64,000 bases of DNA from Patescibacteria group bacterium (lineage in GTDB: Bacteria; Patescibacteriota; Patescibacteriia; SCPX01). The stretch spans positions 6,876 through 70,875 of the forward strand of contig SCPX01000056.1 of assembly GCA_004298615.1 (NCBI GenBank). Reading direction: 5' to 3'. The position numbers were made by a program, and so were the translations under genes. Below are positions 26,320-63,477 of the stretch, piece after piece; position 1 is the stretch's first letter, and each line of letters begins with the position of its first letter. The notes below the pieces were generated by a model. The model worked only from the letters and a program-made list of their open reading frames with translations, did no database searches and was not told the DNA's origin.

Positions 26320-26345
26320 ATCTTGAAAATTGTTAATTTGCAAAA

Positions 26346-33729: not shown

Positions 33730-33803
33730 GGCTGGGTAGCTCAGTTGGTTAGAGCGAAGGACTCATAAGCCTTAGGTCGTGGGTTCGATTCCCACCCCAG
33801 CTA
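33730..33803 (+). tRNA. tRNA with CAT anticodon, probably elongator tRNA-Met (tRNA-Ile2/lysidine not excluded)
   Basis: The acceptor is GGCTGGG/CCCAGCT (G1:U72 wobble). The D-arm is GCTC..GAGC with GG. The anticodon loop is CTCATAA. The T-arm is GTGGG-TTCGATT-CCCAC, the discriminator is A, and CCA is not encoded. Confidence 0.75.
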
Positions 33804-33807
33804 CTAG

Positions 33808-37756: not shown

Positions 37757-37838
37757 TAACCAATACTTCAAAAGAATGAGCGTTTGCCTTTCCGCCTTTT
37801 TGGCGGAAGGAGAGATTCGCATTCTACGACAAGCAAGT

Positions 37839-44386: not shown

Positions 44387-44453
44387 AAAGCTAAGAGCCG
44401 TTTACCTCTTGCGCCAATTTTTAAACATTAAGACAAGTATAAAAAGTTGACGC

Positions 44454-44484
44454 AAGGGGTAAATAGTTTATTTACCCCTTTTTG
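44454..44484 (+). terminator. Rho-independent terminator (aaggggtaaata-gtt-tatttacccctt followed by tttg)
   Basis: Seen in sequence. Confidence 0.7.
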
Positions 44485-44619
44485 TTCTTTGTAAATTCAG
44501 CAAGATGTCGCGCATTTTCTGCAGGATGAGTTTAGCCCGAACTTTTCGGGATATATGCCCATACTTCAGGATATGCATGAAAAATAAACCAATAACCACA
44601 AACCACAAGGAGGTAGAAA

Positions 44620-45954
44620 ATGAGTCATTCAGTATCGGGAGTTTCTCTGTTTTTGTTGCAAGCGCCGCTTTTAATCGGTTTACCATTTGCCATTTGGCGG
44701 TTCAAATTCGTCCAAAGGTTTATTCCTTTGGTAGTAATCCAGATAATGCTCGGCGTAGTTCTCGGTCCGTCAATATTAGGTCGAGTTTTTCCGGAAATGT
44801 TCAATACGCTATTTCCGCAAGCATCTCTGATGCCTATTAACGGCCTTTCTTGGATTGCCATAATCCTCTTCGGATTTCTTACCGGACTTCATTTTGATTA
44901 TCGCGATATCAAAGGCCGGGGCGCCTCATTTGCCATTACCAGTCTTTCCAGTATTTTAGTGCCTTTCGGCTTGGCTCTTTTGGCCGCCTGGCAGATTTGG
45001 AATTCTTATTCCAATGTTTTTGCCGGCAATAATGCCATTGCTTTCACATTTATTATCGCAATGGGAATTGCGGTCGGAGTGACAGCCTTACCGGTTCTGT
45101 CGGCGATATTGATAGAAATGCATTTGATTCAGCGGCCGCTGGGCAAAGCCGCTCTTGGTTTCGCCACTGTCAATGACGGAGTCCTCTGGATTCTGGTTTC
45201 AATTCTTTTGTCTCTGGCTTCGTCCGGAGCGAATATCAATGCGGCAACAGTCGCAAAAACCATAGGATTAACTCTATTGTTTCTCTCGATTATGGCGCTG
45301 GCAGTAAGGCTGTTTATTATGCGTTGCCTGAATGCGAAAATAATTTCTTCGCAAATCCATAATCAAGATTTGGTGGCGGTGCTTTGCCTGCTTTTCATTT
45401 CGGCTTTTATTACCGAATTGATCGGCGTTCATTTCCTATTGGGCGCTTTTACGGCCGGAGCCATAATTCCCAAGGAAATGTCCCACGGCATCCAGCACAA
45501 ACTTGAGCATTCAGTCTCAATAATCCTTTTACCGTTCTTTTTTATGTCCACGGGACTGCAAACTAAGTTTGACTTCGGCGCTTCGGAGATCTGGATTCTT
45601 TTTGCTCTTATGACCGCCGTATCAATTGTCGGCAAAGTGGCCGGGACTGCCATTCCTGAAAAACTAAGCGGCTCTTCGTGGGTCAGGTCTTTGGAACTCG
45701 GCGCGCTGATGCAGTGCAAGGGACTGATGGAGGTCGTCGTTCTTCAAATGATGCTTGCGGCGCAGATTATTACGCCGCAATGTTTCTCCGCCATGCTTTT
45801 TATGGCCATCACTACTACGGCTTTTACCAAGCCGGCCGTATTGATCGTGCGCAGATATTTCGGAACGCACAAACACCGCATTGAAGACGCCGAACCAATG
45901 ATAATGGACGCTCCGGAGCCGCCGCAATTAATGGAATTGGTAAAAAACGGATAG
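44620..45954 (+). CDS. Cation:proton antiporter, CPA2 family, paralog
   Basis: It has the Na_H_Exchanger profile ('IMLGVVLGPSILG'). Confidence 0.75.
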   Translation: MSHSVSGVSLFLLQAPLLIGLPFAIWRFKFVQRFIPLVVIQIMLGVVLGPSILGRVFPEMFNTLFPQASLMPINGLSWIAIILFGFLTGLHFDYRDIKGRGASFAITSLSSILVPFGLALLAAWQIWNSYSNVFAGNNAIAFTFIIAMGIAVGVTALPVLSAILIEMHLIQRPLGKAALGFATVNDGVLWILVSILLSLASSGANINAATVAKTIGLTLLFLSIMALAVRLFIMRCLNAKIISSQIHNQDLVAVLCLLFISAFITELIGVHFLLGAFTAGAIIPKEMSHGIQHKLEHSVSIILLPFFFMSTGLQTKFDFGASEIWILFALMTAVSIVGKVAGTAIPEKLSGSSWVRSLELGALMQCKGLMEVVVLQMMLAAQIITPQCFSAMLFMAITTTAFTKPAVLIVRRYFGTHKHRIEDAEPMIMDAPEPPQLMELVKNG

Positions 45955-45982
45955 ATTTTATTTAATCTTGCTTTTGTTCTTT

Positions 45983-46025
45983 AAAGTCCAAACTTTTTTA
46001 GTTAAAAGTTTGGACTTTTTTTTAT
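45983..46025 (+). terminator. Rho-independent terminator (aaagtccaaactttt-ttagtt-aaaagtttggacttt followed by ttttta)
   Basis: Seen in sequence. Confidence 0.7.
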
Positions 46026-46156
46026 CCGTTTTCTCTTAAAATTATTCTAAACCATTGCAATTTAATGAAAATTCGGCTATACTGTTTATGTTTTTAAGGA
46101 GATTATTATTTTTTTAAGTGCGGATCAATGAGTTTTGATGGTATATTCATCAAGAT

Positions 46157-48328
46157 TTGTTGACGCGCATTTGTCTCTTCTCTATGCATGAGAGCTCGTT
46201 TTTTCTCGTCGTTTTGGCGGTTTCGTTCCTTTTATTTTTAGCCGCTTATGTGGCGGTTTATGTAAAGCAGATCCGTTTGCCTTATACCGTGGCGTTGACG
46301 GTCTTTGGAATAATTTTAAGCATTTTATCCCGTTTTGCGCCGTTTGATTTTTTAAATGTATTGGAACTTTCGCCCGATCTGGTATTTTATTTATTTTTGC
46401 CAATGCTTATTTTTGAAGGCGCGTACAATATGAAATTTTTGGAGTTGCGCGCGAATTTTAAAACGATTTCGGCTCTTGCGATCGGCAGTTTATTGGTCTC
46501 CGCTTTTTTCATCGGCTGGGCTTTATTTCAAGTTTTCAAAATGATCGGATTGGAAATTCCTTTTATCACTCTTTTACTTTTCGGGGCGCTTATTTCAGCC
46601 ACCGACCCGATCGCCGCTCTGGCGATTTTCAAAGAATTGGGCGTACCCAAAAGATTGCGACTGCTTTTGGAAGGGGAGAGTGTGGCCAATGACGGGACGG
46701 CTCTAGTGCTTTTTCAGGTGGTCTTAGGCATTGCCTCGGGCGGGGCATTGACCGCCTGGAAGCTGGCGGAAAGTTTTGGCAATTTTTGGTTTTTGGTCGG
46801 CGGAGGAATTATTTTCGGAAGCGTTTTAGGGATTATTTTTTCAAAATTGATAGAGCGGATAAGAAATTTAGCCGTTGTGGAAATTACTTTAACATTGGTT
46901 CTCGCCCATACGGCTTTTATTTTTGCGGAAAAATTTCTTCATGTTTCGGGAATTATCGCCACGGCAAGCGCAGCTATGCTGATAGGAAATTACGGCCGGT
47001 ATAAAATTTCTCCGGAAGTGCGGAGCTTTATGGAACATTTTTGGGAGTATATGGCTTTTGTAGCCAACTCCCTTATTTTTTTGCTAATCGGGCTTTCCAT
47101 CCGTGAAGCGCGTTTTGGAAATTACATCTGGCCGATCATAATAGCTTTGGCGGTCGTATTTATCGCACGATTCGTTTCCGTTTACGCGGTAATCCCGTTT
47201 ACCAACAAATTAGCCAAGGAAGAAAAAACGCCTTTTTCCTGGCAATTTATCCTGTCTTGGGGCGGATTGCGCGGCGCTTTGCCTATGGCCATCGTGCTTA
47301 TCTTGCCGGCCGACTCGCCGTTTTTACCGGCCGAACATCGGGAGTTACTTTTAGTTTTGACGGTTTCCGTGATTTATTTTACTCTGCTTTTTCAAGCGCC
47401 GACTTTGACGAAATTTTTAAATAGATTTAGGTTGACGGTCTTGACTCCGGTCCAGCAATTGGAACAGGAAGAAGGATTTTTACTTATGGACTCGGCCATT
47501 TTGAAAAAGCTTGACGAAATGAAAGCGAGCGGGAAATTACCGGCAAGCACTCATGAGCGTCTGCGCGAGCTTTACGCCGGACTTCATAAAGATGCCGAAC
47601 AAAGATTGCGGACGCTGTTAAAAGACCGAGGCGAGATTTTATCGCACGAAGAAATGCTTTTTATATTGCGCAAGCATTTGCTGGGAATTGAGCGGCAAGC
47701 GTACATCCGTCTTTTTGACAAGCACGAGATTTCCGAAAGAATGCTGGTGGTTTTAAAAGATAAAATAGACAGGCAGATTGACCGCTTGGAAAGACGAGTG
47801 CCGCAAGCGGCCGCGGTGGGCAAAGGCAGCCGTCTGGCTTTTTGGGAATTGGAACAGAAAATTTATAAATTTATTGATAAAATCAATATCGCCTTTGTGA
47901 AAAATTGGTCTAAAAACCGAAAGCTTGATTTTGAAATTGAAGTTTATCAGAAATACCGCGCCAGAAAAATTGCCGTTGAAAAAGCGATGAAAGAGCTTGA
48001 CAATATCACGGCGACGCGCGTTTTTATCGACCAGGCGGTCATTGATGCCGTAAGGAAACAATACGATTATTGGTTTGAAAATTCTCTAAAAAGATTGGAT
48101 GAAATGGAAAAGAAAAATCCCATCCTCATTGAATCAATCAGATTCGTGATCGGGAATACCGTATCTATAGCCCTTGAGCAAAAAATACTCCGCGAATTGC
48201 TGCAAAAAGGAATTTTGGCGGAAAACGCTTATGCCGAAGTAAACGATTATCTTCACGGCCTGATTGTTGAAAAACATGATGTTAAGAAAATGTATTTTAA
48301 GGAATTAAAAGAAAGAGGAATGGCTTAA
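46157..48328 (+). CDS. Na+/H+ antiporter of the CPA1 (NhaP) type with a long cytoplasmic regulatory C-terminal domain
   Basis: The TM domain carries 'ATDPIAALAIF' and 'GESVANDGTALVLF'. A C-terminal soluble domain of about 300 aa follows. Confidence 0.75.
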   Translation: MLTRICLFSMHESSFFLVVLAVSFLLFLAAYVAVYVKQIRLPYTVALTVFGIILSILSRFAPFDFLNVLELSPDLVFYLFLPMLIFEGAYNMKFLELRANFKTISALAIGSLLVSAFFIGWALFQVFKMIGLEIPFITLLLFGALISATDPIAALAIFKELGVPKRLRLLLEGESVANDGTALVLFQVVLGIASGGALTAWKLAESFGNFWFLVGGGIIFGSVLGIIFSKLIERIRNLAVVEITLTLVLAHTAFIFAEKFLHVSGIIATASAAMLIGNYGRYKISPEVRSFMEHFWEYMAFVANSLIFLLIGLSIREARFGNYIWPIIIALAVVFIARFVSVYAVIPFTNKLAKEEKTPFSWQFILSWGGLRGALPMAIVLILPADSPFLPAEHRELLLVLTVSVIYFTLLFQAPTLTKFLNRFRLTVLTPVQQLEQEEGFLLMDSAILKKLDEMKASGKLPASTHERLRELYAGLHKDAEQRLRTLLKDRGEILSHEEMLFILRKHLLGIERQAYIRLFDKHEISERMLVVLKDKIDRQIDRLERRVPQAAAVGKGSRLAFWELEQKIYKFIDKINIAFVKNWSKNRKLDFEIEVYQKYRARKIAVEKAMKELDNITATRVFIDQAVIDAVRKQYDYWFENSLKRLDEMEKKNPILIESIRFVIGNTVSIALEQKILRELLQKGILAENAYAEVNDYLHGLIVEKHDVKKMYFKELKERGMA

Positions 48329-48435
48329 GATAGCGCATAATTTGCTAACCTTAGCCAAAATACCGCAAAAGTCTTGCCAAAAACTAATTTTTGGTTTATA
48401 ATGAGCCAATTTGGTTAAAATTAATTCAAATAAAA

Positions 48436-49254
48436 ATGGCTAAAGAATTGGAAATTTCAATCGCGGCCGAACCGATTTTTCATATTGGATCTTTTGCCGT
48501 CACAAACTCGCTATTGAATTCTTGGGTCGCGGTTGTAATAATCGTAATATTATCAATGTTGATAAGGCGAAAAATAACCCGCGTGCCAAGAGGATTGCAA
48601 AATGTTGTTGAAATGATTTTTGAACAAGCTTTGACCTTGGCCGATTCCATCACCGGTTCGCGTGAAAAATCAATGAAATTTTTACCCATAGTTCTCCCGC
48701 TTTTTACTTTTATATTGATAAATAATTGGCTGGGAATCCTGCCGGGCATCGGTTCCATAGGATTTTTTGAAGGAGAAGGGGATCATAAACTGTTTGTTCC
48801 GTTTTTTCGCGGCGCGACCGCCGATTTGAATACCACTTTGGCTCTAGCCGTTGTGACCATAATTTTGACGCACATATTCGGAGTGATAATGACCGGCGCT
48901 TGGAGCCATTTTAATAAATTTATAAGAATCAATCTTTTTCTGGAATTGCCCAGAAAAGTTTTTAAAGAAAAAGAATACTCGGCTCTGCTCACCAATCCGA
49001 TTCAATTTTTCGTCGGTTTGATTGAAATAGTCGGAGAGTTGGCAAAAGTGGCATCGTTGTCTTTCCGGTTGTTCGGCAATATTTTCGCCGGCGAAGTGCT
49101 GATGGGAGCGATTGCTTTGATTTTCGCCTACGCTTTGCCCATACCGTTTATGTTTTTGGAAATGATCGTGGGAATTGTGCAGGCGCTGATTTTCTCAATT
49201 CTGGCATTGGTTTTTATGAGCATTATGTCAACGGATCATGCGCACGAACATTAA
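48436..49254 (+). CDS. atpB: F0 ATP synthase subunit a (operon copy)
   Basis: It has the 'SFRLFGNIFAGEVLM' signature and is the first gene of the atp operon. Confidence 0.85.
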   Translation: MAKELEISIAAEPIFHIGSFAVTNSLLNSWVAVVIIVILSMLIRRKITRVPRGLQNVVEMIFEQALTLADSITGSREKSMKFLPIVLPLFTFILINNWLGILPGIGSIGFFEGEGDHKLFVPFFRGATADLNTTLALAVVTIILTHIFGVIMTGAWSHFNKFIRINLFLELPRKVFKEKEYSALLTNPIQFFVGLIEIVGELAKVASLSFRLFGNIFAGEVLMGAIALIFAYALPIPFMFLEMIVGIVQALIFSILALVFMSIMSTDHAHEH

Positions 49255-49323
49255 TTTATGTTTATTATTAAAAATTATTAATTAATAATGCGATCTTCTT
49301 GAAAAAGAAAGAATCGCGCATAA

Positions 49324-49545
<222 letters not shown>

Positions 49546-49557
49546 TTAAAAAATACC

Positions 49558-50061
49558 ATGGAATCAATCATTGAAACATTTCATCTTGATTGGAAATTAT
49601 TTTTAGCCCAAGCGGTGAATTTCACCATTGTGGCGGTGGTTTTGTGGCGCTTTGCTTTCAAGCCGTTGGCGAAAAATCTGTCCGAACGGACCAAAACCAT
49701 TGAAAAAAGCCTGAAGCAAGCCAAGGAAATCGCGGAACAAAGAGAAGAGATGCTGAAATTGCGCGAACAGGCCGTGCTGGAAGCGCAGATTGAAGCCAAA
49801 AAAGTGATTGATGAGACCAGCAATAAGATGAAAGAATACGAAGAACAGATGCGGATTAAAACGCAAAATCAAGCGGAAGTTATTTTAACCAAAGCCAAGT
49901 CCGATATTCAGGAAGAGAAAGGAAAAATGTTGAGCGAGGTCAGACAAGAAGCGGCCGATTTGGTGGTAATGGCTTTGGAAAAAGTTTTGCAGGAAAAAGT
50001 CACGGCCGATTTGGATAAAAAATTGGCGGAAAAAGCGGTTAATAGCATTGCGACGAATTAA
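49558..50061 (+). CDS. atpF: F0 ATP synthase subunit b
   Basis: An N-terminal TM helix is followed by a long charged helix. Confidence 0.8.
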   Translation: MESIIETFHLDWKLFLAQAVNFTIVAVVLWRFAFKPLAKNLSERTKTIEKSLKQAKEIAEQREEMLKLREQAVLEAQIEAKKVIDETSNKMKEYEEQMRIKTQNQAEVILTKAKSDIQEEKGKMLSEVRQEAADLVVMALEKVLQEKVTADLDKKLAEKAVNSIATN

Positions 50062-50066
50062 TTATT

Positions 50067-50456
50067 ATGAAAAAAATAAATGCAAAACATTACGCTCAAG
50101 CGCTTTCCAGAATTTCCGGCGCTCCGGATTTAAGCGTTGTTTTGGATAATTTTTTTAACTTGGTTCGGAAAAACGGCCAATTGTCCGGATTGGGAGAAAT
50201 ATTAAGCGAATACGAACGCATAGCGCTGGAAAAAAAAGAAGGTATTGCCGCGGATTTGTCAGTGGCTGCTTCGGAGAATAAGACAATAATCACGGAGATG
50301 ATTAAACGGATAAAAATTCCCGGCATTGAAAAATTTAAAATTACCGCCAGAGACGACAAAGATCTTTTAGGCGGATTTAAATTACGCGTCAGGGATATTT
50401 TGATAGACGCCGGCTTAAAGAAAAAAATTACTGACCTTAAGAAATCATTTAATTAG
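50067..50456 (+). CDS. atpH: ATP synthase subunit delta (OSCP), short form
   Basis: Assigned by position between atpF and atpA, with the OSCP-like C-terminus '[16 protein letters not shown]'. Confidence 0.6.
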
Positions 50457-50457
50457 T

Positions 50458-51975
50458 ATGCCCAATGACGAACGGATTATCCGGTATTTACAAGAAAAAA
50501 TCAATCAATTCGCGCCTAAAACTGAAATTGAGCGCGTAGGCACCGTGACCGAAGTGGCTGACGGCGTGGCAAGAATAGACGGACTATCTAACGCGGCGGC
50601 CAGTGAAATGCTTGAATTTATCACCAAAGACAACGAAGTTATAAATGGAATGGTTTTGAACCTGGAAGAAGATTCGGTCGGCGCCATGATTCTCGGAGAT
50701 TACGCCAAAATAAAAGAAGGCGATACGGTCAAATCAACCGGCCGGATTTTATCAATTCCGGTGGGCGATGAATTGCTTTCACGGGTGATTGATCCTTTGT
50801 GCAATCCCGTGGACGGCCGGGGACAGATAGAATCGTCAAAATACTATCCGGTTGAGAAAAAAGCGCCCGGGGTGATTGAGCGCGAATCCGTGAAAAGCCC
50901 GCTCCAGACCGGCATCAAGGCCGTTGATACGATGATTCCGATCGGCCGGGGGCAGCGGGAATTGATTATTGGCGACAGGCAGACCGGAAAATCCCAAATC
51001 GCCATTGATACGATTATTAATCAAAAAGGGCAAAATACGATTTGCATTTATGTGGCGATCGGGCAAAAAGAATCAAAAATCGCGCGCATCGCGGCCAGAT
51101 TGGAAGAAGCGGGAGCTATGGATTACACGATTGTGGTGGTGGCGGGCGCGTCTGATCCGGCGCCGCTTTCTTTTCTCGCGCCGTATTCCGGCTGCGCCAT
51201 TGGAGAATATTTTATGGATCAGGGAAAAGATGTTTTGATCGTGTATGACGATCTTTCCAAACACGCGACAAGCTACCGGCAGGTATCTCTGATTTTGCGA
51301 CGGCCCCCCGGCAGGGAAGCATACCCGGGCGATGTTTTTTATCTGCACTCCAGGCTTTTGGAAAGGTCTTGCAAATTATCCAAAGAATTGGGCGGGGGGA
51401 GTATCACCGCTTTGCCGATTATTGAAACGCAAGCCGGCGATGTATCCGCTTATATTCCGACCAATGTTATTTCCATAACGGACGGCCAGATATATCTTGA
51501 AGGCGACCTTTTTTATCAAGGAGTGCGGCCGGCCGTCAATGTGGGTCTTTCCGTTTCCCGCGTGGGATCGGCGGCGCAGACCAAAGCAATGAAAAAAGTG
51601 GCCGGAAAAATCCGCTTGGAATTGGCGCAATATCGGGAATTGGCGGCGTTCGCGCAATTTGCGTCCGATCTTGACGAGACGACCAAGAAACAAATTGAGC
51701 GGGGAAAAAGATTGGTGGAAGTATTGAAGCAAGACCAATTCAGTCCGATGTCAATGGAGCATCAGGTAGCCATAATTTACGCGGCTATAAACAGTTATAT
51801 TGATGATGTGGCGGTTGAGAAAGTGAAGGACTTTGAAAATCAGTTTCATTCTTATCTTGACGCGAGTTTCGGAGGCTTGATGAAAAAACTGGGAGAACAA
51901 AAAGAGCTTACACCGGAAATTGAAAAGGAATTAAAAAAAGCGATAGAGGTTTTTAAAAAAGTTTATGGCCAGTAA
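50458..51975 (+). CDS. atpA: ATP synthase subunit alpha
   Basis: It has a Walker A motif ('GDRQTGKS') and the 'ITDGQIYLE' motif. Confidence 0.95.
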
Positions 51976-52861
51976 TACGCGCCAAATCAGAAGGCAAATC
52001 AAATCCATTAAAAATACGGCGAAAATTACGCGCGCGATGGAAATGATTTCAGCCGTTAAGCTGCAAAAAACTCAAGCGCAGGCTTTGGCTTCACGCGCTT
52101 ATTCGCTTGCCGCCAAAGAAATTCTGGAAAAGCTCACTCTGGGCATTGAAACAAGCGAGCATCCTTTTTTCATCGAGCGGCCGATAGAGCGAATCGGCAT
52201 TATCGTAATGTCGTCCAATCGCGGATTGTGCGGAAGCCTGAACGGCAATATTTTGAAAACCGTTTTGGATTATGAAAAAAATATTTTAGTGAATTTTCCC
52301 GGCGCTGAAATTTCTTACATTACAATGGGAAAAAAAATTCGCGACAGCCTGGCCAGGCTTGGAAAAAATATTTTAGCCGATTTTCCCAAACCGGACATCG
52401 CTTTGAATAGTTTGCCGGCCGTCCCATTGGCGAATTTGGCGGTTGAGGAATTTTCCAAGAAAAATCTGGATCGCGTGGTTATGATTTTTCCCGAATCAGT
52501 TTCAATCGTTAATCAAAAACCGATCGTTTTGCAGCTTTTGCCTCTGGCGTATGAATTTGCCGAAGAAGCGGCCGAAAAAGAAGCTGAAAAAAAACGCCGC
52601 ATTTCTTATATTTTTGAGCCGACCAAAGAGGAGATTTTGGGGCAAGCGCTCGTGAGACTTTTAGAAACGCGGGTTTTTCAATCGCTTTTGGAAGCCAATG
52701 CCGCGGAGCACGCGGCCAGAATGGTGGCTATGAAAAACGCGACCGACAGCGCCAAGGATTTGGTTGACGATCTGACGCTTTTTTACAACCGCACCCGCCA
52801 AGCCGCGATCACTCAAGAAGTATCGGAAATCACTTCGGGACGGTTGGCGCTTGAAAATTAA
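51965..52861 (+). CDS. atpG: ATP synthase subunit gamma
   Basis: The gamma-subunit N-terminus '[26 protein letters not shown]' is present. It overlaps atpA by 11 nt. Confidence 0.9.
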
Positions 52862-52892
52862 ATATGATTTATATTTAAATACTTAATACTAA

Positions 52893-54293
<1,401 letters not shown>

Positions 54294-54302
54294 AGTGGTA
54301 AT

Positions 54303-54725
54303 ATGTCAAAGAAGATCCATTTTCAAATAGTCACGCCGGAAAAAGTCGCGTATAAGGATGATGTTGATTCTATTACTTTGTCTACGCAAATAGGAGAAAT
54401 TACCGTTTTGCCGGATCACGCGCCTTTGATTTCATCTTTAAAATCAGGCGAGGCGATTATCAAAAAAGACGGAGAGGAATTAAGCATTGCCGTTTCCGGA
54501 GGATTTCTTCAAATCCAGCCGAAAAATAGAGCGGTGGTATTGGCGGATGCGGCCGAGCGGGCCGAAGAAATTTCCGAAGAGCGGGCCGAGGAAGCGAGGA
54601 AGCGGGCCGAAGAAATTTTAAAAGAAAAAAGATTGGATAAGGCCGAAATGGCCACGGCCGCCGCCGCTTTGGAAAAATCGTTAATACGATTAAAAGTCGC
54701 GCGGAGGCGGACCGGAAGACGCTAA
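54303..54725 (+). CDS. atpC: ATP synthase subunit epsilon
   Basis: It has an N-terminal beta-sandwich and a C-terminal helical hairpin. Confidence 0.85.
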   Translation: MSKKIHFQIVTPEKVAYKDDVDSITLSTQIGEITVLPDHAPLISSLKSGEAIIKKDGEELSIAVSGGFLQIQPKNRAVVLADAAERAEEISEERAEEARKRAEEILKEKRLDKAEMATAAAALEKSLIRLKVARRRTGRR

Positions 54726-54728: not shown

Positions 54729-55268
54729 ATGTTCAGACTTTTTTATAAAATTTTTACCACGCCAAAAACCGTCATAAGCGCTGATGATTTGAATTGCGAG
54801 CAGGCGGAAGTGAATGCTATCGGCGCGAAGATTCAAGAAAAAGTGAAAAAGCTTTTTCGGGGATCTCTGGCTATAAGAATGGTGGATGCCGGATCAACCA
54901 ACGCGGCCGAGTATGAATTGACGGCTTTGTCCAACGCTTTTTACGATGCGGACAGATTCGGAATTCATTTTGTGGCCTCGCCGAAGCACGCGGATATGCT
55001 TATAGTCACCGGGCCGGTGACGAGAAATATGAAAAACGCCTTGATCAAGGCCTACGAGGCAACTCCTGATCCAAAAATCGTCGTGGCGCTGGGAGACGAT
55101 GCCATAGACGGCGGAATTTTCAAAGGATCTTACGCGACTTATGACGGAGTGAAAAAAGTAATACCGGTTGATTATGAAATTCCCGGCGATCCGCCCAGTC
55201 CCAAAACAATCCTTTGCCATTTATTGAAAATCATCGGAACAATTGAAGCTAAACGGGCAGGAGGATAA
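54729..55268 (+). CDS. NuoB/HyfI-like (complex-I 20-kDa / hydrogenase small-subunit homologue) lacking all four [4Fe-4S] cysteine ligands
   Basis: Alignment to NuoB by eye gives 'FVASPKHADMLIVTGPVT' = 'FRASPRQSDVMIVAGTLT'. 'VVALGDDAIDGG' corresponds to 'ISMGSCANSGG' (Cys to Asp). 'IPVDYEIPGDPPSP' corresponds to 'VPVDIYVPGCPPT' (Cys to Asp). The CCxxE box is replaced by 'DAGSTNAAE'. Confidence 0.75.
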   Translation: MFRLFYKIFTTPKTVISADDLNCEQAEVNAIGAKIQEKVKKLFRGSLAIRMVDAGSTNAAEYELTALSNAFYDADRFGIHFVASPKHADMLIVTGPVTRNMKNALIKAYEATPDPKIVVALGDDAIDGGIFKGSYATYDGVKKVIPVDYEIPGDPPSPKTILCHLLKIIGTIEAKRAGG

Positions 55269-55274
55269 AACTAA

Positions 55275-57326
55275 TTGGATATGCAAGAATTAATATTGTC
55301 TCAAACTGTTTTTTTCGCCGTATTGGCGTTGTTTGGCTTGGGAGCGATATCCTCTTTATTTTTCAGAAAAGATGATAAGTTGGCGAATTTAGCCGGAAGT
55401 TTTTTCGCCATTTTAGGATCGCTTTTAGGAATTGTTTACGCGGTTGCCGCCCTGTATTCCGATACATCGATTTTTTATGAGATGAAATCATCTTTTCCCT
55501 TGTTGTCATATAATTTCAATATAGATCGGCTCGCCGCGTTTTTTATTTTCATAATTTCCTTGATCTCGCTTTTTTGTTCAATTTATGGCGCAGGTTACAT
55601 AAAACATTTTTACGGAAAATACAATATCGGCACGCTTGGATTTTTTTACAATCTTTTTATCGCGGGAATGCTTTTGGTCGTCTCTTCCTCTAATATTTTA
55701 TTTTTCCTCATTGCCTGGGAAATAATGTCTTTGGCGTCTTATTTTCTGGTTATTTACGAACGGGACAAGCAGGAAAATATAAAAGCCGGATTTCTGTATT
55801 TTGTAATGACGCATATTGGCACCGCTTTTATAATTTTGGCGCTTTTATTGCTGTATAAGTTCGCCGGATCTTTTGATTTTTTGGCGATAAAAGAAGCCGT
55901 CGGGAGTATTCCGCCGCTTGCGAAAGACGCGATTTTTATTCTCGCTTTTATCGGTTTCGGCACAAAAGCGGGAATTATCCCAATGCATATCTGGCTGCCC
56001 GCCGCTCATCCGGCCGCGCCGTCCCATGTTTCCGCCTTGATGTCCGGCGTGATGATCAAGACCGGAATTTATATGATGATTCGTATATTTTTTGATATTC
56101 TGCCAAATGCTCCGGTTTGGTGGGGAACGGTGATTTTAATTTGCGGCGCCACTTCGGCTCTTTTAGGAGTTTTGTACGCGCTTACCGAGCATGACATCAA
56201 AAGACTTTTGGCTTATCACAGCATAGAAAATATCGGCATAATTCTTTTGGGTCTGGGCTCTGCTCTGGTTTTTGCAGCACTTAATATGAAATCGTTTGCG
56301 GCACTGGCTCTTATTGCTTCTCTTTTTCATATTTTAAACCACGCTGTTTTTAAGTCGCTTTTATTTTTGGGCGCCGGATCAGTGATTTCAAAAACTCATA
56401 CGAGAAATATTGAAGAATACGGCGGACTCATCAAACATATGCCGCAGACTGCGCTGTTTTTTCTGGCCGGATCAATGGCTATCTCCGCTCTTCCGCCTTT
56501 CAACGGTTTTTTCAGCGAATGGCTGACATTTCAAGCGCTGTTTGAAGGAATAAAATCAATGAGCTCGTTTTATCGCTGGATTTTTGTTTTTTCAGCCGGA
56601 TCTTTGGTCCTGACAAGCGGTTTGGCGCTGGCTTGTTTTGTTAAGGCCTTTGGTCTGACATTTTTGGCCCGACCGAGAAGCGAGGCAGTAAAGCACGCCA
56701 AAGAATCCTCATTTTCTTTGAGGCTCGGAATGGCGACTTTGGCGGTTTTATGTTTGCTTCTTGGCTTGTTATCAGGATTTTTATTCGCGATTTTTAATAA
56801 GATATTGCAAGGCATAAAATCTTTCGGCGATTATGATCCGGCGCTGGTTGTTTCGCAAAATCATCTCATCAGCGTCAACGGCGGATTTTCCTCAATTTCC
56901 GCTCCGGCGATTTTTGCCGTATTGATTTTGGCCGGTATTGCCGCGTTCGCGATAATCCGCTTAATTTCAAAAGATCAAAAAGTAAAAATCGGCGCCACTT
57001 GGGATTGCGGGACAAATCTCGGTCCCAGAATGGAAATCACTTCCACCGGATTTTCCCGGACGATTATTATGATTTTTAAAGGAATATTAAAGCCGAGCAA
57101 ACAAGCGGGGATTGAATATTCTGACGCCAATATGAGATATTTCCCAAAATCAAGAACTATGGTTTTTGAGATAAGTGATGTTTACAAAAAATATTTTTAC
57201 AAGCCGCTTTATAGTTTTGTTTTTAAAATTTCCGCGCGAGTCAAAAAAATACAAAGCGGCAATGTCAATGCCTATGTTTTATACATCTTTATGGCTTTGA
57301 TATTATTGCTGTTTTTCGCGGTTTAA
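55275..57326 (+). CDS. NuoL/MrpA/HyfB-like antiporter-type membrane subunit
   Basis: It is 683 aa with a Proton_antipo_M core ('WLPAAHPAAPSHVSALMSGVMIKTGIY'). Confidence 0.75.
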   Translation: MDMQELILSQTVFFAVLALFGLGAISSLFFRKDDKLANLAGSFFAILGSLLGIVYAVAALYSDTSIFYEMKSSFPLLSYNFNIDRLAAFFIFIISLISLFCSIYGAGYIKHFYGKYNIGTLGFFYNLFIAGMLLVVSSSNILFFLIAWEIMSLASYFLVIYERDKQENIKAGFLYFVMTHIGTAFIILALLLLYKFAGSFDFLAIKEAVGSIPPLAKDAIFILAFIGFGTKAGIIPMHIWLPAAHPAAPSHVSALMSGVMIKTGIYMMIRIFFDILPNAPVWWGTVILICGATSALLGVLYALTEHDIKRLLAYHSIENIGIILLGLGSALVFAALNMKSFAALALIASLFHILNHAVFKSLLFLGAGSVISKTHTRNIEEYGGLIKHMPQTALFFLAGSMAISALPPFNGFFSEWLTFQALFEGIKSMSSFYRWIFVFSAGSLVLTSGLALACFVKAFGLTFLARPRSEAVKHAKESSFSLRLGMATLAVLCLLLGLLSGFLFAIFNKILQGIKSFGDYDPALVVSQNHLISVNGGFSSISAPAIFAVLILAGIAAFAIIRLISKDQKVKIGATWDCGTNLGPRMEITSTGFSRTIIMIFKGILKPSKQAGIEYSDANMRYFPKSRTMVFEISDVYKKYFYKPLYSFVFKISARVKKIQSGNVNAYVLYIFMALILLLFFAV

Positions 57327-57335
57327 TGGAATAAT

Positions 57336-58265
57336 ATGGAAAATATAATCAACTGGACAATTCAAATTTTGCTCTTGCCGGCCTTGTCGCCGCTCTGTGT
57401 CGGCATTATCAGAAAAATAAAAGCGCGCTTTCAAAATCGCCAAGGAGCGAGCGTTTTTCAGCCATATAATGATCTGTGGAAGCTTTTTCATAAAGACGAG
57501 GTGATAAGCTCTGACGCTTCCTGGATATTCCGTTTCGCGCCGTTTGCGATTTTTGGAGCGACTTTGGCAGTCTCGGCCAGTCTTCCGATTTTCGCCTCGT
57601 TTTTGTCAAATAATTTCACGAGCGATATTTTAGCGGTTATTTATATTCTGGCGATCGGTACTTTTTTCTTGGCGCTCGCCGGATTGGATGTCGGGGGAGC
57701 TTTCGGGGGATTTGGTTCAAGCCGGGAGATGACCGTGTCGGCGCTGGCCGAAGGCGGACTTTTATTTTCATTGCTCGTCCTTTCTTTCATGAGCGGAACG
57801 ACTAACCTTTTTTCAATTTCCGGCACCATTGATTCTTTGCCTCTCGCGTCTCTCTTGCCGGTTGTTCTGGCATTCTTGGGATTCTTTATCGTTTTATTGG
57901 CGGAGACGGCCCGCTTTCCTTTTGACAATCCGTCCACTCATCTTGAGCTTACGATGATCCACGAAGCGATGATAATTGAATATTCCGGAAAGCGGCTTGC
58001 CCTGATTGAATGGGCATCGGCCAATAAGCTGTTAATTTTCATAACGCTCGGCTCAAGTCTGTTTTTCCCAATAGGCATTGCCCATTCCATGGGCGTGATC
58101 GCGATAGCCGCCGCTATTTTATTTTATCTTTTGAAAGTCCTGGTTTTTTGCGTAGCCGTCGCCATTATTGAATCCGGCATTGCCAAACTTCGTCTTTTTC
58201 GGCTTCCGGATTTGCTGCTTTTTTCTTTTATTTTAAGCGTTATCGCCCTTGGTTTGATAATTTAA
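57336..58265 (+). CDS. NuoH/HycD-like membrane subunit
   Basis: Its N-terminus 'IRKIKARFQNRQGASVFQPYNDLWKLF' matches the HycD/NuoH 'RxGPxxxQxxxDxxKL' block; it has about 8 TM helices. Confidence 0.75.
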   Translation: MENIINWTIQILLLPALSPLCVGIIRKIKARFQNRQGASVFQPYNDLWKLFHKDEVISSDASWIFRFAPFAIFGATLAVSASLPIFASFLSNNFTSDILAVIYILAIGTFFLALAGLDVGGAFGGFGSSREMTVSALAEGGLLFSLLVLSFMSGTTNLFSISGTIDSLPLASLLPVVLAFLGFFIVLLAETARFPFDNPSTHLELTMIHEAMIIEYSGKRLALIEWASANKLLIFITLGSSLFFPIGIAHSMGVIAIAAAILFYLLKVLVFCVAVAIIESGIAKLRLFRLPDLLLFSFILSVIALGLII

Positions 58266-58268
58266 AAT

Positions 58269-58931
58269 ATGATTGACGCGATGAACAATTCATTTTTTCA
58301 ATTTACGGCAATCACGGCGGTTTTTTTGTCAGCCGTGCTGCTCCATATTACGAAAAGAAATTCAACTGCGGTCTCCTTGTATTTTATCCAATCGCTCGCC
58401 GTGGCCGCTTTGCTTTTCCGGCCGCTGTTTGAAAATTTCTCTTTGGCCGTTCTGCTGATGGCCGGATTGACTTTGGCGATAAAAGCCGCAGTCGCGCCGC
58501 TTTTCTTTTCAAGATTGATCAAAAGACATCAATTGAAATTTTCCGCCAGCACTTATTTGAATACGCCGCTGACTTTGATCGTCATAGCCGCTCTTGCCGC
58601 GCTGACCAATTCTCGGATTTTTTCCCACATCGCGTCGATTGATCCGGACAATAAAAAAATATTGGGACTGGCTATTGCCGTGATCCTCGTATCTTTTTTT
58701 CTGATCATCAATCGCAAAGGCGCCGTGTCGCAAATCATCGGGATTCTGTCGCTGGAGAACGGGATCGTCGCTTTTGCTTTGTTTTCCGGACTGGAACAAT
58801 CGCCGGCGCTCCAAATCGGCGTGATATTTGATCTTTTTGTCTGGGTGATTATTGCCGCCGTTTTTATTTCAATGATCTATAAGCAATTCGGTTCGCTTGA
58901 TGTGACCGAACTGAAGCATTTGAAAGAATAA
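58269..58931 (+). CDS. HyfE-like small membrane subunit (NuoK-related)
   Basis: Its 220-aa size and position match hyfE. It has 6-7 TM helices; motif support is weak. Confidence 0.5.
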   Translation: MIDAMNNSFFQFTAITAVFLSAVLLHITKRNSTAVSLYFIQSLAVAALLFRPLFENFSLAVLLMAGLTLAIKAAVAPLFFSRLIKRHQLKFSASTYLNTPLTLIVIAALAALTNSRIFSHIASIDPDNKKILGLAIAVILVSFFLIINRKGAVSQIIGILSLENGIVAFALFSGLEQSPALQIGVIFDLFVWVIIAAVFISMIYKQFGSLDVTELKHLKE

Positions 58932-58934
58932 TTT

Positions 58935-60383
58935 TTGAATATGGAATTGATTTTAATCATCGGATCTCCCATAGTCGCTTCAATCGCCAGTTTTTTTTCA
59001 AGCAAAAGAAAAGCCTGCGAAACAGCGACAATAATCGCCGGAGCCGTTGCTTTGGCCGCAGCGCTGTTTGCCGTGCTTAAAGTTTCCTCCGAAGGGACTT
59101 ATTCGCCCAATGATTATTTTTCAATTGACGCGCTTGGAGCCATAATTATCTCATTGATAGCTTTCATCGGCTTTATTGCCGCGCTGTATTCAACGGCTTA
59201 CTTGAGAAGGGAAACGGAAAAGGGGATAATTGGCTTTGAAAAAGTCAGGCTTTACTTCATTCTTTTCAATTTATTCATCGCGGCTATGTTTTTGGCCGCT
59301 TCCACTTCCAATCCCATAATAATGTGGATCGCCATTGAAGGCACCACTCTTTCCACGGCGTTTTTGATCAGTTTTTACAATAAGCCGTCCGCTATGGAGG
59401 CGGCGTGGAAATATTTGATCATCAATTCAATCGGATTACTCTTGGGATTTTTCGGCACCTTGCTTTTTTACACGGCCCTGACGCACGGAGAGGGAATTGC
59501 ATTCAGCTGGGATTCTTTGATGGATAGCGCCAAAAATCTTGATCCGATGATTGCGAAAATCGCTTTTATATTCATATTGGTCGGCTACGGAACAAAGACC
59601 GGCTTGGCGCCAATGCACACTTGGCTTCCCGACGCTCACAGCAAAGCGCCGGCGCCCGTCAGCGGACTTTTGTCCGGTTTGCTGCTTAATGTCGCGATGC
59701 TGGCCATTTTGCGTTTTAAAGTCGTGGCCGATGCCGCGATTGGCGGACAGTTTACCGGCAACTTATTGATTTGGTTCGGTCTAATCTCAATTGTTTTGGC
59801 GGGCTTTATCATAATGGTGCAGAAAAATTACAAACGCTTGTTCGCTTATTCCAGTATTGAAAATATGGGAATCGCGGCTATGGGATTCGGCTTCGGCGGA
59901 ATCGGATCGTTCGCGGCTATTCTTCATATAATTTATCACGCGCTGGCCAAATCGCTTCTTTTCTTCTCGTCCGGCAACATATTTTTACGATACAGTTCCA
60001 CAAAAATCGCCAAAGTGAAAGGAATGTTGTCCGCAATTCCGGCCACGAGCCTTGTCGTTGTGATAGGATTTTTGACAATCGTCGGCGTTCCGCCTTTCGG
60101 AATATTTATGACAAAGTTTTATATTTTGTCCGAAGGTTTGAAAACCCATCCTGTCCAAACGATTATCGCGCTGGTTTCGTTCGTCATTATTTTTGTCGGT
60201 TTCCTGACTCACGCCGCGGCTTTGCTCTTCGGCAATGCGCCCGAAGAGATTTCCAAAGAAAAAGAAAACAAGTGGACAATTATTCCACTGGCGATTTTAA
60301 TAATCGCTTTTGTCGTTTTGAGCGTATATTTGCCGCCACCGCTTAAAATCCTGATTGACTCCGCTTTAATCAAATACCAATAA
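58935..60383 (+). CDS. NuoM/N / HyfF-like antiporter-type membrane subunit
   Basis: It has the Proton_antipo_M motif 'GLAPMHTWLPDAHSKAPAPVSGLLSGLLLNVAM'. Confidence 0.7.
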   Translation: MNMELILIIGSPIVASIASFFSSKRKACETATIIAGAVALAAALFAVLKVSSEGTYSPNDYFSIDALGAIIISLIAFIGFIAALYSTAYLRRETEKGIIGFEKVRLYFILFNLFIAAMFLAASTSNPIIMWIAIEGTTLSTAFLISFYNKPSAMEAAWKYLIINSIGLLLGFFGTLLFYTALTHGEGIAFSWDSLMDSAKNLDPMIAKIAFIFILVGYGTKTGLAPMHTWLPDAHSKAPAPVSGLLSGLLLNVAMLAILRFKVVADAAIGGQFTGNLLIWFGLISIVLAGFIIMVQKNYKRLFAYSSIENMGIAAMGFGFGGIGSFAAILHIIYHALAKSLLFFSSGNIFLRYSSTKIAKVKGMLSAIPATSLVVVIGFLTIVGVPPFGIFMTKFYILSEGLKTHPVQTIIALVSFVIIFVGFLTHAAALLFGNAPEEISKEKENKWTIIPLAILIIAFVVLSVYLPPPLKILIDSALIKYQ

Positions 60384-60384
60384 T

Positions 60385-61956
60385 ATGAATAACAATGAAA
60401 TAATCGCCAAATATCTGCCGGCGCATGCGGATGTAAAAATCAATAATAATTTTATCGCATTTGAGATTCCGCACTCTTCGCTGAAAGAGATTGTTTGCGA
60501 TCTTTACCGCAAGCACAATCTGCCGCTAAAGACCATAACCGCGGCAGATGAAAGGGAAGAAAACGGCTGTTTTAAGATATTCTATGCGTTTGGAGCGCCG
60601 AAAGAAAATATTTTTGTGGCGCCCTTTATCAGGATTGAAAGCTCTGAGGAATTTCCTTCTTTGACTTCGGAAATTCACGAAGCGTCAACTTATGAAAGAA
60701 AAATAAAAACTTTTTTCGGCCTAAATCCCATTGGCCATCCGAATCCGCGGACATTGATTCTTCACGAGAATTGGCCCAATGGTTTATTTCCTTTGAGAAA
60801 AGATTTTAACTGGCAGACCCGTCCGGCCGAGGCCAAGGAACATTTTGAATTTTATAAAATAGAAGGGGAGGGGATTTATGAAATTCCGGTGGGGCCGATC
60901 CACGCAGGAATTATTGAGCCGGGACATTTCCGTTTCAATGTGGCCGGAGAAGAGATTTTGAATCTTGAGCCGCGGCTCGGTTTTGTGCACAAAGGAAGCG
61001 AGAAATTGTTTGAGATTTTGCCGCTTGAAAAAAAATTGATTTTATCCGAGAAAATTTCCGGCGACAGCGCTTTTTCTCATTCTCTTGCTTTTTGCCAAGC
61101 CGTAGAGTCTTTGGGCGGGATCAATGTTCCGGAGCGGGCCAAATATTTGAGAGTCGTATACGCGGAACTGGAAAGACTGGCCAATCATTTGGGCGACATC
61201 GGCTTCATAATGCTTGACACCGGATTTAATTTCGGCGGGGCAAACGGCAGCCGCTTGAGAGAAATGATAATGCAGATAAACGAGCGATTGACCGGCAGCC
61301 GGTTTTTGCGCGGGGTAAATATTTTCGGAGGAGTCGCAAAAGACATAAACAGGCAAGCGGCAGATAAATTAATGGAGGATTTGGAAAATATCGTAAATGA
61401 TTTTTCCGAAGTGATTGAAGTGGCCGAAAACAGCGATTCGCTTTTGAACCGGCTGAAAGGCACGGGAATTGTCACGGGCCAAATTGCCAAAGATCATGGA
61501 GTAACCGGCGTGGCCGGGCGGGCGGGCGGAAGCAAAAATGACGCGAGAAAAGATTTCCCTTACGCGGCTTATGATAAATTGGATTTCCAGATCGCGGTTG
61601 AAGAAACAAGCGATGTTTACGCGCGATTCCGCGTCCGCATAAAAGAAGTTTATTCGTCTTTTGAAATAATAAAACAAGCTTTGGAAAATTTGCCGGAAGG
61701 AGCGGTTAATGCGCCCTTGGCGGCCGTCAATCTAACGCCGAACGCGCAGGCTTTGAGTATTGTTGAAGGTTGGCGCGGAGACATCGTATATTTCGCAATG
61801 ACTGACGCGCGGGGAAATATCAGCCGCGTTGATGTGCGGGATCCGTCTTTCTTAAATTGGACGGCCGCCGGACACGCCGGTCCGGGCAATATTGTTCCGG
61901 ACTTTCCTCTGATAAACAAGAGCTTTAATTTGTCGTATTCCGGAAACGATCTTTGA
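60385..61956 (+). CDS. HycE/HyfG-like fused NuoC-NuoD ([NiFe] large-subunit homologue) lacking all four Ni-Fe cysteine ligands
   Basis: 'PVGPIHAGIIEPGHFRF' aligns to the HycE/NuoD core. 'EKISGDSAFSHS' replaces the 'RVCGICGFAHS' L1 motif (both Cys to Ser). The C-terminal 'DVRDPSFLNW' replaces 'DPCYSC' (Cys to Ser and Cys to Asn). Confidence 0.75.
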   Translation: MNNNEIIAKYLPAHADVKINNNFIAFEIPHSSLKEIVCDLYRKHNLPLKTITAADEREENGCFKIFYAFGAPKENIFVAPFIRIESSEEFPSLTSEIHEASTYERKIKTFFGLNPIGHPNPRTLILHENWPNGLFPLRKDFNWQTRPAEAKEHFEFYKIEGEGIYEIPVGPIHAGIIEPGHFRFNVAGEEILNLEPRLGFVHKGSEKLFEILPLEKKLILSEKISGDSAFSHSLAFCQAVESLGGINVPERAKYLRVVYAELERLANHLGDIGFIMLDTGFNFGGANGSRLREMIMQINERLTGSRFLRGVNIFGGVAKDINRQAADKLMEDLENIVNDFSEVIEVAENSDSLLNRLKGTGIVTGQIAKDHGVTGVAGRAGGSKNDARKDFPYAAYDKLDFQIAVEETSDVYARFRVRIKEVYSSFEIIKQALENLPEGAVNAPLAAVNLTPNAQALSIVEGWRGDIVYFAMTDARGNISRVDVRDPSFLNWTAAGHAGPGNIVPDFPLINKSFNLSYSGNDL

Positions 61957-61959: not shown

Positions 61960-63477
61960 ATGCCGATAAGGCAGTCTTTGGTTATTCGTTTGATATTAGC
62001 CGCGCTTATTTTGGGAATCGGTTTGGGAGATTTTTTAGAAAATGATTTTGCCTATTGGGCGGTTATCGGCATTGGAATAGCGGCGCTGATTTTTTCGGTT
62101 ATGGAGCGAAACAGGATTTTTTATTTAACGGGCATTTTATTGCTCGTTTTTTGTTTTGGCGGAATTTGGGCGCGCTTAAACGAGCCGATAATTGATCAAT
62201 CGCACATTGGATTTTACAACGGACAAAAAATTTTATTGCAGGGAATTGTAGTCGGGGAGCCGGAAATGAAAAAGGCGAGTATCAGATATGCTATTAGAGA
62301 AATCACGGCGGATAATCATGATTTGCGCGGCCGATTGCTCATTACCTCGCGATTTTATCCGGAATACCATTACGGCGATTTATTGGAAATTGAATGCAAA
62401 TTAAAAAAACCGGAGCCGTTTGAAGGTTTTGAATATGATAAATATTTATCGCGCTATGGTATTTATTCTACTTGCTCTTTTCCGAAAATCGCTTTGCTGG
62501 AACAAAACAAAGGGAGCGCCGTCCGCGCAATGCTTCTGGATTTTAAAAAATATTTCACAAGCCGATTGGAGAAAATTTTTCCAGCCGCGCCCGCCGCTTT
62601 GGCCGCCGGACTTTTGACCGGCGAAAGAAGCGGTATTCCTGAGGAATTGAAAGATAAATTTTCCACCACCGGTTTGTCGCACATTTTGGCAGTATCTGGT
62701 TTCAATATCACGATTATCGGATGGGCGATTTATTGGGTGAGCGCCAGAGCGCCGTTTATGAACCGGAAACGCGCTTTTTGGCTGTCACTCGGAATTATTT
62801 TTTGTTTCGTCCTGATTGCCGGTTTTGAGGCATCAATCATCAGAGCGGCGATTATGGGATCATTGGTCTTGATTGCCGAGCAAGCCGGCCGCCGGCGTTC
62901 CGGCTTGAATCTGCTATTGATTGCGGCCGCGGTTATGCTGCTCATCAATCCAAAACTTTTTTGGCTGGACATCGGCTTTCAACTTTCCTTTTTGGCGACT
63001 TTCGGACTTTTGGAAGTGTCGCCCCGAATTGAAAAATATTTTTTATGGATGCCGGAAACTTTGGAATTGCGCAAAACTTTTGCGGCCACAATTTCCGCGC
63101 AAATTATGACTCTGCCGATAATCGCTTCGTCATTCGGCATCGTGTCTTTGATTGCGCCGCTGACCAATATAATCGTTCTGCCGCTCATTCCTTACATTAT
63201 GCTGTTTGTCCTGATTGCCGGAATCGGAGCCGTGATTTTTATCAAACTTGGAATAGCGCTCGCGCTGGTTCCCTTGATTCTGATTTGGTATGTTATTTTC
63301 ATAGCCCAATTTTTCTCCGATATTCCTTTTGCCGCGCTGGAAATTGAATCCTATTGGATCGTCTGGATCGGATTTGCCATCAGTATGATTTTGATCTTTA
63401 AAAAAGAACTTAAAAAATCATTCGCTTTGGCGCCGCGGTTTCGGTTTCTGAAGAAAGTGCAAGCCGATCGCAATTAA
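61960..63477 (+). CDS. comEC: ComEC/Rec2-family DNA-uptake channel protein (no beta-lactamase domain)
   Basis: 'TTGLSHILAVSGFNITIIG' matches the ComEC competence domain; it has about 10 TM helices. Confidence 0.75.
   Translation: MPIRQSLVIRLILAALILGIGLGDFLENDFAYWAVIGIGIAALIFSVMERNRIFYLTGILLLVFCFGGIWARLNEPIIDQSHIGFYNGQKILLQGIVVGEPEMKKASIRYAIREITADNHDLRGRLLITSRFYPEYHYGDLLEIECKLKKPEPFEGFEYDKYLSRYGIYSTCSFPKIALLEQNKGSAVRAMLLDFKKYFTSRLEKIFPAAPAALAAGLLTGERSGIPEELKDKFSTTGLSHILAVSGFNITIIGWAIYWVSARAPFMNRKRAFWLSLGIIFCFVLIAGFEASIIRAAIMGSLVLIAEQAGRRRSGLNLLLIAAAVMLLINPKLFWLDIGFQLSFLATFGLLEVSPRIEKYFLWMPETLELRKTFAATISAQIMTLPIIASSFGIVSLIAPLTNIIVLPLIPYIMLFVLIAGIGAVIFIKLGIALALVPLILIWYVIFIAQFFSDIPFAALEIESYWIVWIGFAISMILIFKKELKKSFALAPRFRFLKKVQADRN

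Follow-up and report, generated by a model that had tools for sequence, protein, structure and literature searches.

What does a hydrogenase-like large subunit do once the residues that hold its Ni-Fe centre are gone? Here, we describe ehrL, an open reading frame (ORF) of 523 amino acids (aa) at 60385-61956 (+) in a 64 kb stretch of DNA (positions 6,876 to 70,875 of contig SCPX01000056.1, assembly GCA_004298615.1; hereafter the window, to which all coordinates refer unless another locus is named). Its product, EhrL, is the large subunit of a complex encoded by six clustered genes, the Ehr (energy-converting hydrogenase-related) cluster of a Patescibacteria (candidate phyla radiation, CPR) bacterium. 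We hold with moderate confidence that the encoded complex is a redox-inert, gradient-driven ion translocator that works with an H+-ATPase. An earlier note on the window, made from the sequence alone, had described a full-length, clean 523-aa frame and a HycE/HyfG-type NuoC-NuoD fusion, and both descriptions stand. Pfam places Complex1_30kDa (PF00329, NuoC) at residues 27-145, followed by Complex1_49kDa (PF00346, NuoD); the closest solved structure is E. coli HycE (7z0s_E; E-value 3.9e-80, residues 31-522), and complex I NuoD chains match at 1e-48 or weaker. The two sequence blocks that the note quoted, VGPIHAGIIEPGHFRF and VPERAKYLRVVYAELERLANHL, are both found in EhrL. An AlphaFold2 (AF2) model (predicted local distance difference test, pLDDT, 78; predicted template modelling score, pTM, 0.84) superposes best on HycE in Foldseek (TM-score 0.88) and second best on E. 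coli NuoCD (about 0.8); it is weak at the interface loops (residues 125-181) and the C-terminus (499-523) and is therefore uninformative on the former active site. PADLOC returned no defence-system matches for EhrL and EhrS.

EhrL is the last product of the gene order ehrS-A-B-C-D-L (54729-61956), assigned as follows.

54729-55268, + strand: ehrS, NuoB/HycG-like small subunit, 179 aa, NCBI TAN57685.1 'hydrogenase' (Pfam, alignments)
55275-57326, + strand: ehrA, HyfB/HycC/NuoL-like antiporter-type subunit, 683 aa (Pfam, NCBIfam, alignments)
57336-58265, + strand: ehrB, HycD/NuoH-like subunit, 309 aa (Pfam, alignments)
58269-58931, + strand: ehrC, HyfE-like subunit, NuoK-like towards the C-terminus, 220 aa (Pfam, NCBIfam)
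58935-60383, + strand: ehrD, HyfF/NuoN-like antiporter-type subunit, 482 aa (Pfam, NCBIfam)
60385-61956, + strand: ehrL, NuoC-NuoD-fused large subunit, 523 aa (ORF, Pfam, HycE alignment, AF2/Foldseek)

The cluster thus holds the small, NuoH-like, HyfE-like and antiporter-like subunits of an Ehr gene set. We compared 166 related loci (80 from species-representative genomes, 80 from metagenomes and 6 from look-ups), and the same subunit set was found in at least 160 of them.

Alignment to HycE locates the two former Ni-Fe motifs of EhrL, and a third segment that the earlier note took for one of them.

61051-61080, + strand: former Ni-Fe motif 1, K223-I-S-G-D-S-A-F-S-H232, where HycE has RVCGICGFAH (HycE alignment)
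61840-61857, + strand: DPSFLN (D486-N491), no metal-ligand motif, aligned with HycE RAATYAN and Nqo4 RAPSFVN (alignment)
61927-61953, + strand: former Ni-Fe motif 2, N515-L-S-Y-S-G-N-D-L523 and then the stop, where HycE has DPCYSCTDR (HycE alignment)

Both Cys of motif 1 (HycE RxCGxCxxxH) are Ser in EhrL (S225, S228), and those of motif 2 (HycE DPCYSC, here N515-LSYSG520) are Ser (S517) and Gly (G520), the latter three residues ahead of the stop. The earlier note, which had both CxxC motifs mutated, was right that all four Ni-Fe ligands are lost and that the first motif reads SxxS; it mistook DPSxxN for the second, whose real site is NLSYSG, and the codons at the four ligand positions are TCC, AGC, TCG and GGA rather than the tct/agt/tcg/aac that it gave. 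EhrL carries no C-terminal extension (no protease-cleaved tail), and neither do those true hydrogenases among the sampled sequences whose last residues are motif 2. Residues S225, G226, D227, H232, S517, Y518, G520 and D522 are invariant among the relatives compared (A1 and A3), and in the beta1-beta2 loop H173, E178, H181 and R183 are as invariant as D227 and H232.

Among 9085 hits to 50%-identity representatives, the same replacements run through a large and diverse set of sequences with the conserved motif R-x-S-G-D-[STNE]-x3-H ... N-L-S-Y-[SA]-G-x-D-[LR]-COOH; by score, true hydrogenases (RCGxCH ... ELCYxCxDR) are interspersed among them. Loci that also carry the motif pair SGD[ST]..H / NLSY[SA]GNDL-COOH come from Nitrospira, Rokubacteria, Acidobacteria, Firmicutes, Omnitrophota and Thaumarchaeota. 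Compared with a group 4 [NiFe]-hydrogenase, EhrL has the homology, fold and NuoC-like domain, and the Ni-Fe motifs and the proximal [4Fe-4S] cluster site are absent. Its place in the CPR is indicated by identity to a protein from a Patescibacteria metagenome-assembled genome (TAN57690.1 at NCBI, titled 'hypothetical protein [Patescibacteria group bacterium]') and by its neighbours. Homologues number in the thousands; the 120 best share 62-96% identity with EhrL and measure 506-533 aa, apart from one 477-aa fragment, and the names they bear, where there are any, are 'Ni,Fe-hydrogenase III large subunit', 'NADH-quinone oxidoreductase subunit C', Patescibacteria or Azambacteria. In a neighbour-joining tree of the loci, which is rough and without support values, true hydrogenases (CCCC) form a separate branch, EhrL of the window falls inside a clade (A) whose small subunits are cluster-less, and this clade and a second one (B) are each monophyletic.

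Ehr has been defined by a group-4-related large subunit without the Ni-Fe cysteines (PMC6349859, PMC10284858), and the main text of Jaffe et al. (2020, BMC Biol 18:69; PMC7304191) reports a monophyletic CPR Ehr clade without cysteines that 'likely cannot interact with H2'. Loss of the Ni-Fe cysteines in CPR Ehr is therefore already known and, by itself, an ordinary finding; the earlier note missed that the protein belongs to this published family. The literature searched, with the founding Ehr papers and the supplement of Jaffe 2020 outside its reach, makes no mention of a cluster-less CPR EhrS or of linkage to ATP synthase. This suggests that the novel content lies in the cluster-less EhrS, the lack of an electron-input subunit and the attachment to atp genes rather than in the original finding.

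EhrS has lost its cofactor ligands as well. The large-subunit motif unites all Ehr, and what divides them is the small subunit. Aligned to HycG and MbhJ, the four [4Fe-4S] ligand sites are replaced (T57, A60, D124 and D154), and the only two Cys (23 and 163) lie off these sites. Such loss was found in 55 loci that make up the two CPR-type clades, whereas all four cysteines are kept in 69 further loci, 59 of them non-CPR Ehr and 10 from true hydrogenases, where EhrS is often 240-350 aa long with 8-15 Cys. Clade A contains sequences like that of the window (56-96% identity) with [T/D/S][A/C/T/V]-D-D at the ligand positions; clade B, at about 42% identity, has T-E-G-D. An alignment of 30 clade A EhrS sequences has D124 invariant and D154 nearly so; an AF2 model built from it reached a pLDDT of 45.7 and is unusable. 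Reportedly, an Fe-S-less EhrS of Geobacter was described by Coppi in 2005. Among side observations on the small subunit, a non-CPR Ehr locus (L073) has -SSD at the ligand sites and is cluster-less, and another non-CPR locus (L072) places an 'ECED' small subunit beside a true-hydrogenase large subunit with its CxxC motifs intact, a pairing that may stem from wrong ORF assignment. Clade B also has the NuoH-like EhrB and the HyfE/NuoK-like EhrC fused in one 531-aa protein (PF00146 and PF00420), as at 6889-8481 of L137 and, at about 530 aa, in others among L131-L163.

Across all frames of the window, every ORF lacks a CxxCxxCxxxC motif, which is present in 2 of the 55 cluster-less loci versus 23 of the 70 others. 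Among the larger window ORFs, Pfam found no hyp, NuoE/F/G, NuoI/HycF-like or ferredoxin genes. As judged from sequence, the peripheral arm carries no predictable redox cofactor: it has neither Ni-Fe nor [4Fe-4S] ligands, and no ferredoxin-like subunit.

The membrane arm keeps its charged residues. Compared over 34 loci of clade A, 21 of clade B and 40-49 of other Ehr, the invariant positions are E149, K231, H238, H245, K262, H356, K360 and E415 in EhrA, which passes the NCBIfam HyfB cut-off; E135, K221, H228 and K339 in EhrD; and, in EhrB, the acidic and basic channel and loop residues R35, D118, R130, E131, E139, E190, R193, D197, H202, E204, H209, E210, E215, E225, K231, E279, K284 and R286. 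In EhrC, K72 is conserved and E163 is invariant. Several of the invariant charges fall on the conserved intramembrane Glu/Lys and loop glutamates in alignments with HycC, MbhH and HycD, positions that would correspond to transmembrane helices TM5, TM7, TM8 and TM12 of complex I. The ratio of nonsynonymous to synonymous substitution rates (dN/dS; Nei-Gojobori, versus three relatives) is 0.08-0.10 for ehrL and 0.07-0.28 for the other five ehr genes, where atpC gives 0.09-0.12 and both atpA and atpD fall at 0.02-0.06; all six ehr genes are under purifying selection. Because the membrane-arm charges are invariant and dN/dS lies at about 0.07-0.28, the complex is taken to be functional, and it is maintained rather than decaying. 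The view of the earlier note that ehrL is neither a pseudogene nor a hydrogenase is borne out by its dN/dS and by the conservation of the replacement residues. As a side observation, four loci of a sub-group of clade A (L118, L120, L124 and L125) have an extra EhrD-like antiporter-type gene just 3' of ehrL.

What accompanies the cluster is a run of ATP synthase genes, for which consensus scans supplied the promoter and terminator calls.

48391-54725, + strand: F1Fo ATP synthase operon atpB-E-F-H-A-G-D-C, immediately upstream of ehrS (Pfam)
48374-48402, + strand: best sigma-70-like match, TTGCCA-17-TATAAT, 11/12, overlapping the atpB TTG start at 48391 (consensus match)

Translation of atpB may in fact start at an in-frame Met that lies 15 codons further on. 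The atpC stop and the ehrS start are 3 nt apart, the scan found no convincing terminator between them, and gaps are 1-9 nt among the six ehr genes and -11 to 78 nt over the whole run from atpB to ehrL. Counted over loci with at least 3 kb on each flank, atp genes accompany 23 of the 34 that are cluster-less (18 of 26 once loci with 80% EhrL identity are merged) versus 0 of 35 cluster-retaining loci (Fisher p = 2e-10, for loci that are not phylogenetically independent); overall, they are present in 0 of 69 cluster-retaining loci. Linkage is found in both cluster-less clades, most commonly with ehr downstream of atpC, and chance proximity to atp in CPR genomes of about 1 Mb would be a few per cent. 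Other arrangements place the six ehr genes between atpG and atpD (L004, an Azambacteria locus, L091 and L117; near 4100-11600 in all three), in convergent orientation to the atp genes (L093, L097, L115, L116 and L119), upstream of atpB (L162), or on the opposite strand within a split atp operon, between atpC and atpD (L008). The flanks of ehr clusters hold atp, comEC and housekeeping genes, with ATP synthase as the sole recurrent neighbour and no conserved dehydrogenase gene in the flanks examined.

Several further features surround these operons. Three tandem Na+/H+ exchanger (PF00999) paralogues lie directly 5' of atpB at 43082-48328, the third (723 aa) with a C-terminal extension of about 300 aa, and together with atp and ehr they make up a 19-kb single-strand run of ion-handling genes; exchanger neighbours were seen in the window only, the compared loci reaching just about 4 kb beyond the 5' end of ehrS. 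Some 10 kb before the main atp operon, an AtpZ/AtpI-like gene (37740-38150, PF09527) precedes an orphan F-ATPase a-subunit gene (38159-38938; PF00119, E-value 1.7e-47), whose product is 38% identical to that of the operon atpB and keeps the arginine motif FRLFGNIFAGEVL. The delta subunit of the operon (50067-50456) is 129 aa long and N-terminally short, matching only positions 47-171 of the OSCP profile. On the other side, a ComEC gene (61960-63477) starts 3 nt past the ehrL stop; it is the neighbour in the close relative L006 as well, and not in distant loci.

How would such a complex work? With no route for electrons, redox drive would be impossible, and the complex would therefore be driven only by ion gradients. 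Ehr would be a gradient-driven cation or proton translocator working in an Mrp-antiporter-like manner, probably produced together with the H+-type ATP synthase. The F1Fo enzyme of these fermentative organisms is thought to hydrolyse ATP, energising the membrane. Ehr would convert or balance the proton gradient, exchanging H+ against Na+ or K+, or would contribute to pH homeostasis. The EhrL-EhrS module may form a cap or gate above the EhrB channel, in which conserved Ser, Asp and His residues would stand in for the metal sites.

Several points weigh against this proposal. Papers published in 2023 give the function of Ehr as unknown. Conservation of the peripheral arm, with a mean column identity of 72% for EhrL and 71% for EhrS, exceeds the apparent need of a passive cap and hints at specific chemistry or a ligand; together with the acidic residues at former ligand sites, it leaves room for a redox partner or for an accessory role at the ATP synthase. 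Partner genes may lie outside the 64-kb window. The atp and ehr genes probably form one operon, where co-transcription is predicted from spacing only, and about a third of the non-redundant cluster-less loci (8 of 26) are unlinked to atp. Mrp antiporters have no NuoH-like or NuoBCD-like part, and the analogy with them covers the antiporter-like subunits alone. The c subunit reads AFAEAIAIY, without the Ser/Thr of Na+ types, and is therefore read as putatively H+-coupled. We know of no transport or binding experiment on any Ehr complex.

A fuller version of the gradient-driven translocator is put forward more tentatively. It would be a redox-free machine of the complex-I/hydrogenase type, allied with the F1Fo ATPase genetically and perhaps physically too. 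It would interconvert gradients, or gate proton flow where the membrane is energised by ATP, its pockets rebuilt as a Ser/Asp/His proton or cation sensor. If confirmed, the cluster-less EhrS, the missing electron-input subunit and the tie to the ATP synthase genes would make CPR Ehr a natural redox-dead relative of complex I and membrane-bound hydrogenases with its pump residues intact, and a probe of the complex-I-type membrane arm and coupling loops without active-site chemistry. It would also give the unexplained Ehr family a candidate function and fill a gap in how ultra-small fermentative bacteria handle membrane potential.

Other explanations fit less well. Ehr might still be an energy-converting oxidoreductase, in which a partner encoded elsewhere, or a metal bound by Asp, Ser or His, supplies the old active-site pocket with electrons or a substrate and drives ion pumping. 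We consider this improbable, even with the replacement residues conserved in both subunits (D227 and H232 of EhrL; D124 and D154 of EhrS), an acidic residue that both clades have at the second or third ligand position, the hydrogenase proton-path Glu (E178 in IIEPGH) invariant in EhrL, an Fe-S cluster and often a Cys-rich EhrS extension kept in other Ehr, and an FDH-Ehr (FDH, formate dehydrogenase) proposed in the literature. EhrS lacks the Fe-S ligand set, the ferredoxin motif is absent from the window and from 53 of the 55 related loci, and the only recurrent neighbour is the ATP synthase and not a dehydrogenase.

Alternatively, Ehr may be an accessory of the ATP synthase, a physically bound module for proton delivery, regulation or assembly of F1Fo, which we also rate as unlikely and rank next. 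The three loci with ehr inside the atp operon agree with it, as do linkage in both cluster-less clades despite only about 42% identity and the very tight packing of the genes. The unlinked loci (8 of 26) speak against it, and the complete conserved charge set of the antiporter-like subunits points to autonomous ion translocation; no F-ATPase is known to have such a partner.

Far less probable is the role suggested in the earlier note, that of a non-catalytic, quinone-facing protein like the Q module of complex I. EhrL does share fold and domain order with NuoCD, and the NCBIfam NuoD models match it at 248 bits, below their cut-off of 360. In an ungapped alignment, however, the quinone-binding Tyr87 of T. 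thermophilus Nqo4 corresponds to G226, the Gly of the hydrogenase CGxC scaffold, and the beta1-beta2 loop is of the hydrogenase type (IIEPGHFRF) rather than the NuoD type (PSTHGVLRL). EhrS has no N2 cluster ligands, no NuoI or NuoEFG was found among the larger ORFs of the window, and the HycE match is far stronger than that to NuoD (4e-80 versus 1e-48). CPR bacteria reportedly lack quinone synthesis as a rule. Finally, the idea that ehrL is a pseudogene or relic in decay, or that a sequencing error or frameshift hides the Cys codons of a true hydrogenase, has only the missing cysteines in its favour and a negligible chance of being correct, the pseudogene being rejected by dN/dS (about 0.1) and an intact frame in a packed operon, and the sequencing artefact, as the earlier note had also judged, because the same residues recur in hundreds of homologues from independent assemblies.

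Elsewhere in the window, a thiol-redox and copper island at 20000-28100 encodes a fusion of DsbD_2 with cupredoxin (22326-23384), a separate cupredoxin (23662-24039), an HMA-domain P-type ATPase (24061-26319), a DsbD_TM protein (26346-27206) and a protein resembling DsbA (27185-28084). Another DsbA-like protein, AhpC and Fur lie outside the island (also 37-921, and 6041-6613 on the - strand). The window further contains a surface-protein-like 1453-aa PKD/DUF11/DUF7507 repeat protein (7806-12167), two tandem DUF2207 membrane proteins (2105-5603), and two tRNA-Met (CAT) genes separated by 42 nt (33614-33804).

Set beside known systems, the gradient-driven Ehr proposed here is closest to the CPR Ehr clade of Jaffe 2020, the window protein being 62-96% identical to many Patescibacteria entries; that work treats the large subunit only, and its main text does not report the EhrS ligand loss, the absence of ferredoxin or the atp linkage. 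Other Ehr, such as EhrA/C/L/S of Geobacter sulfurreducens (GSU0739-45; Marreiros et al. 2013) and those of Nitrospira, ammonia-oxidising archaea and Margulisbacteria, share the subunit set and the large-subunit motifs, but the non-CPR members keep the four small-subunit cysteines (59 of the 59 with EhrS read), and none lies near ATP synthase genes; L073 is the single further cluster-less case. With Mrp antiporters, Ehr shares antiporter-like and NuoK-like parts, and MrpA/MrpD chains match EhrA with E-values from 1e-39 to 1e-34; most of the small subunits of the MrpA-G set have no counterpart in the cluster, and Ehr is compared with that family in function only, not as a member. The best solved relatives are E. 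coli formate hydrogenlyase and hydrogenase-4 (7z0s; EhrL 4e-80, EhrS 9e-31, EhrA 4e-86, EhrB 4e-42). The gene order B-C-E-F-G is common to both, the small-subunit gene standing first in the window cluster, which differs in lacking the Ni-Fe site, the proximal cluster, the HycF/HyfH and HycB/HyfA ferredoxins, FdhF and the C-terminal maturation peptide. Complex I (NuoCD/NuoB/NuoH/NuoL-N) differs in having the quinone-site Tyr and His (Nqo4 Tyr87 and His38), the N2 cluster, NuoI and the N-module, all of which the window Ehr lacks; the two share fold and modular architecture, and EhrA keeps the Glu/Lys positions of the antiporter-like subunits.

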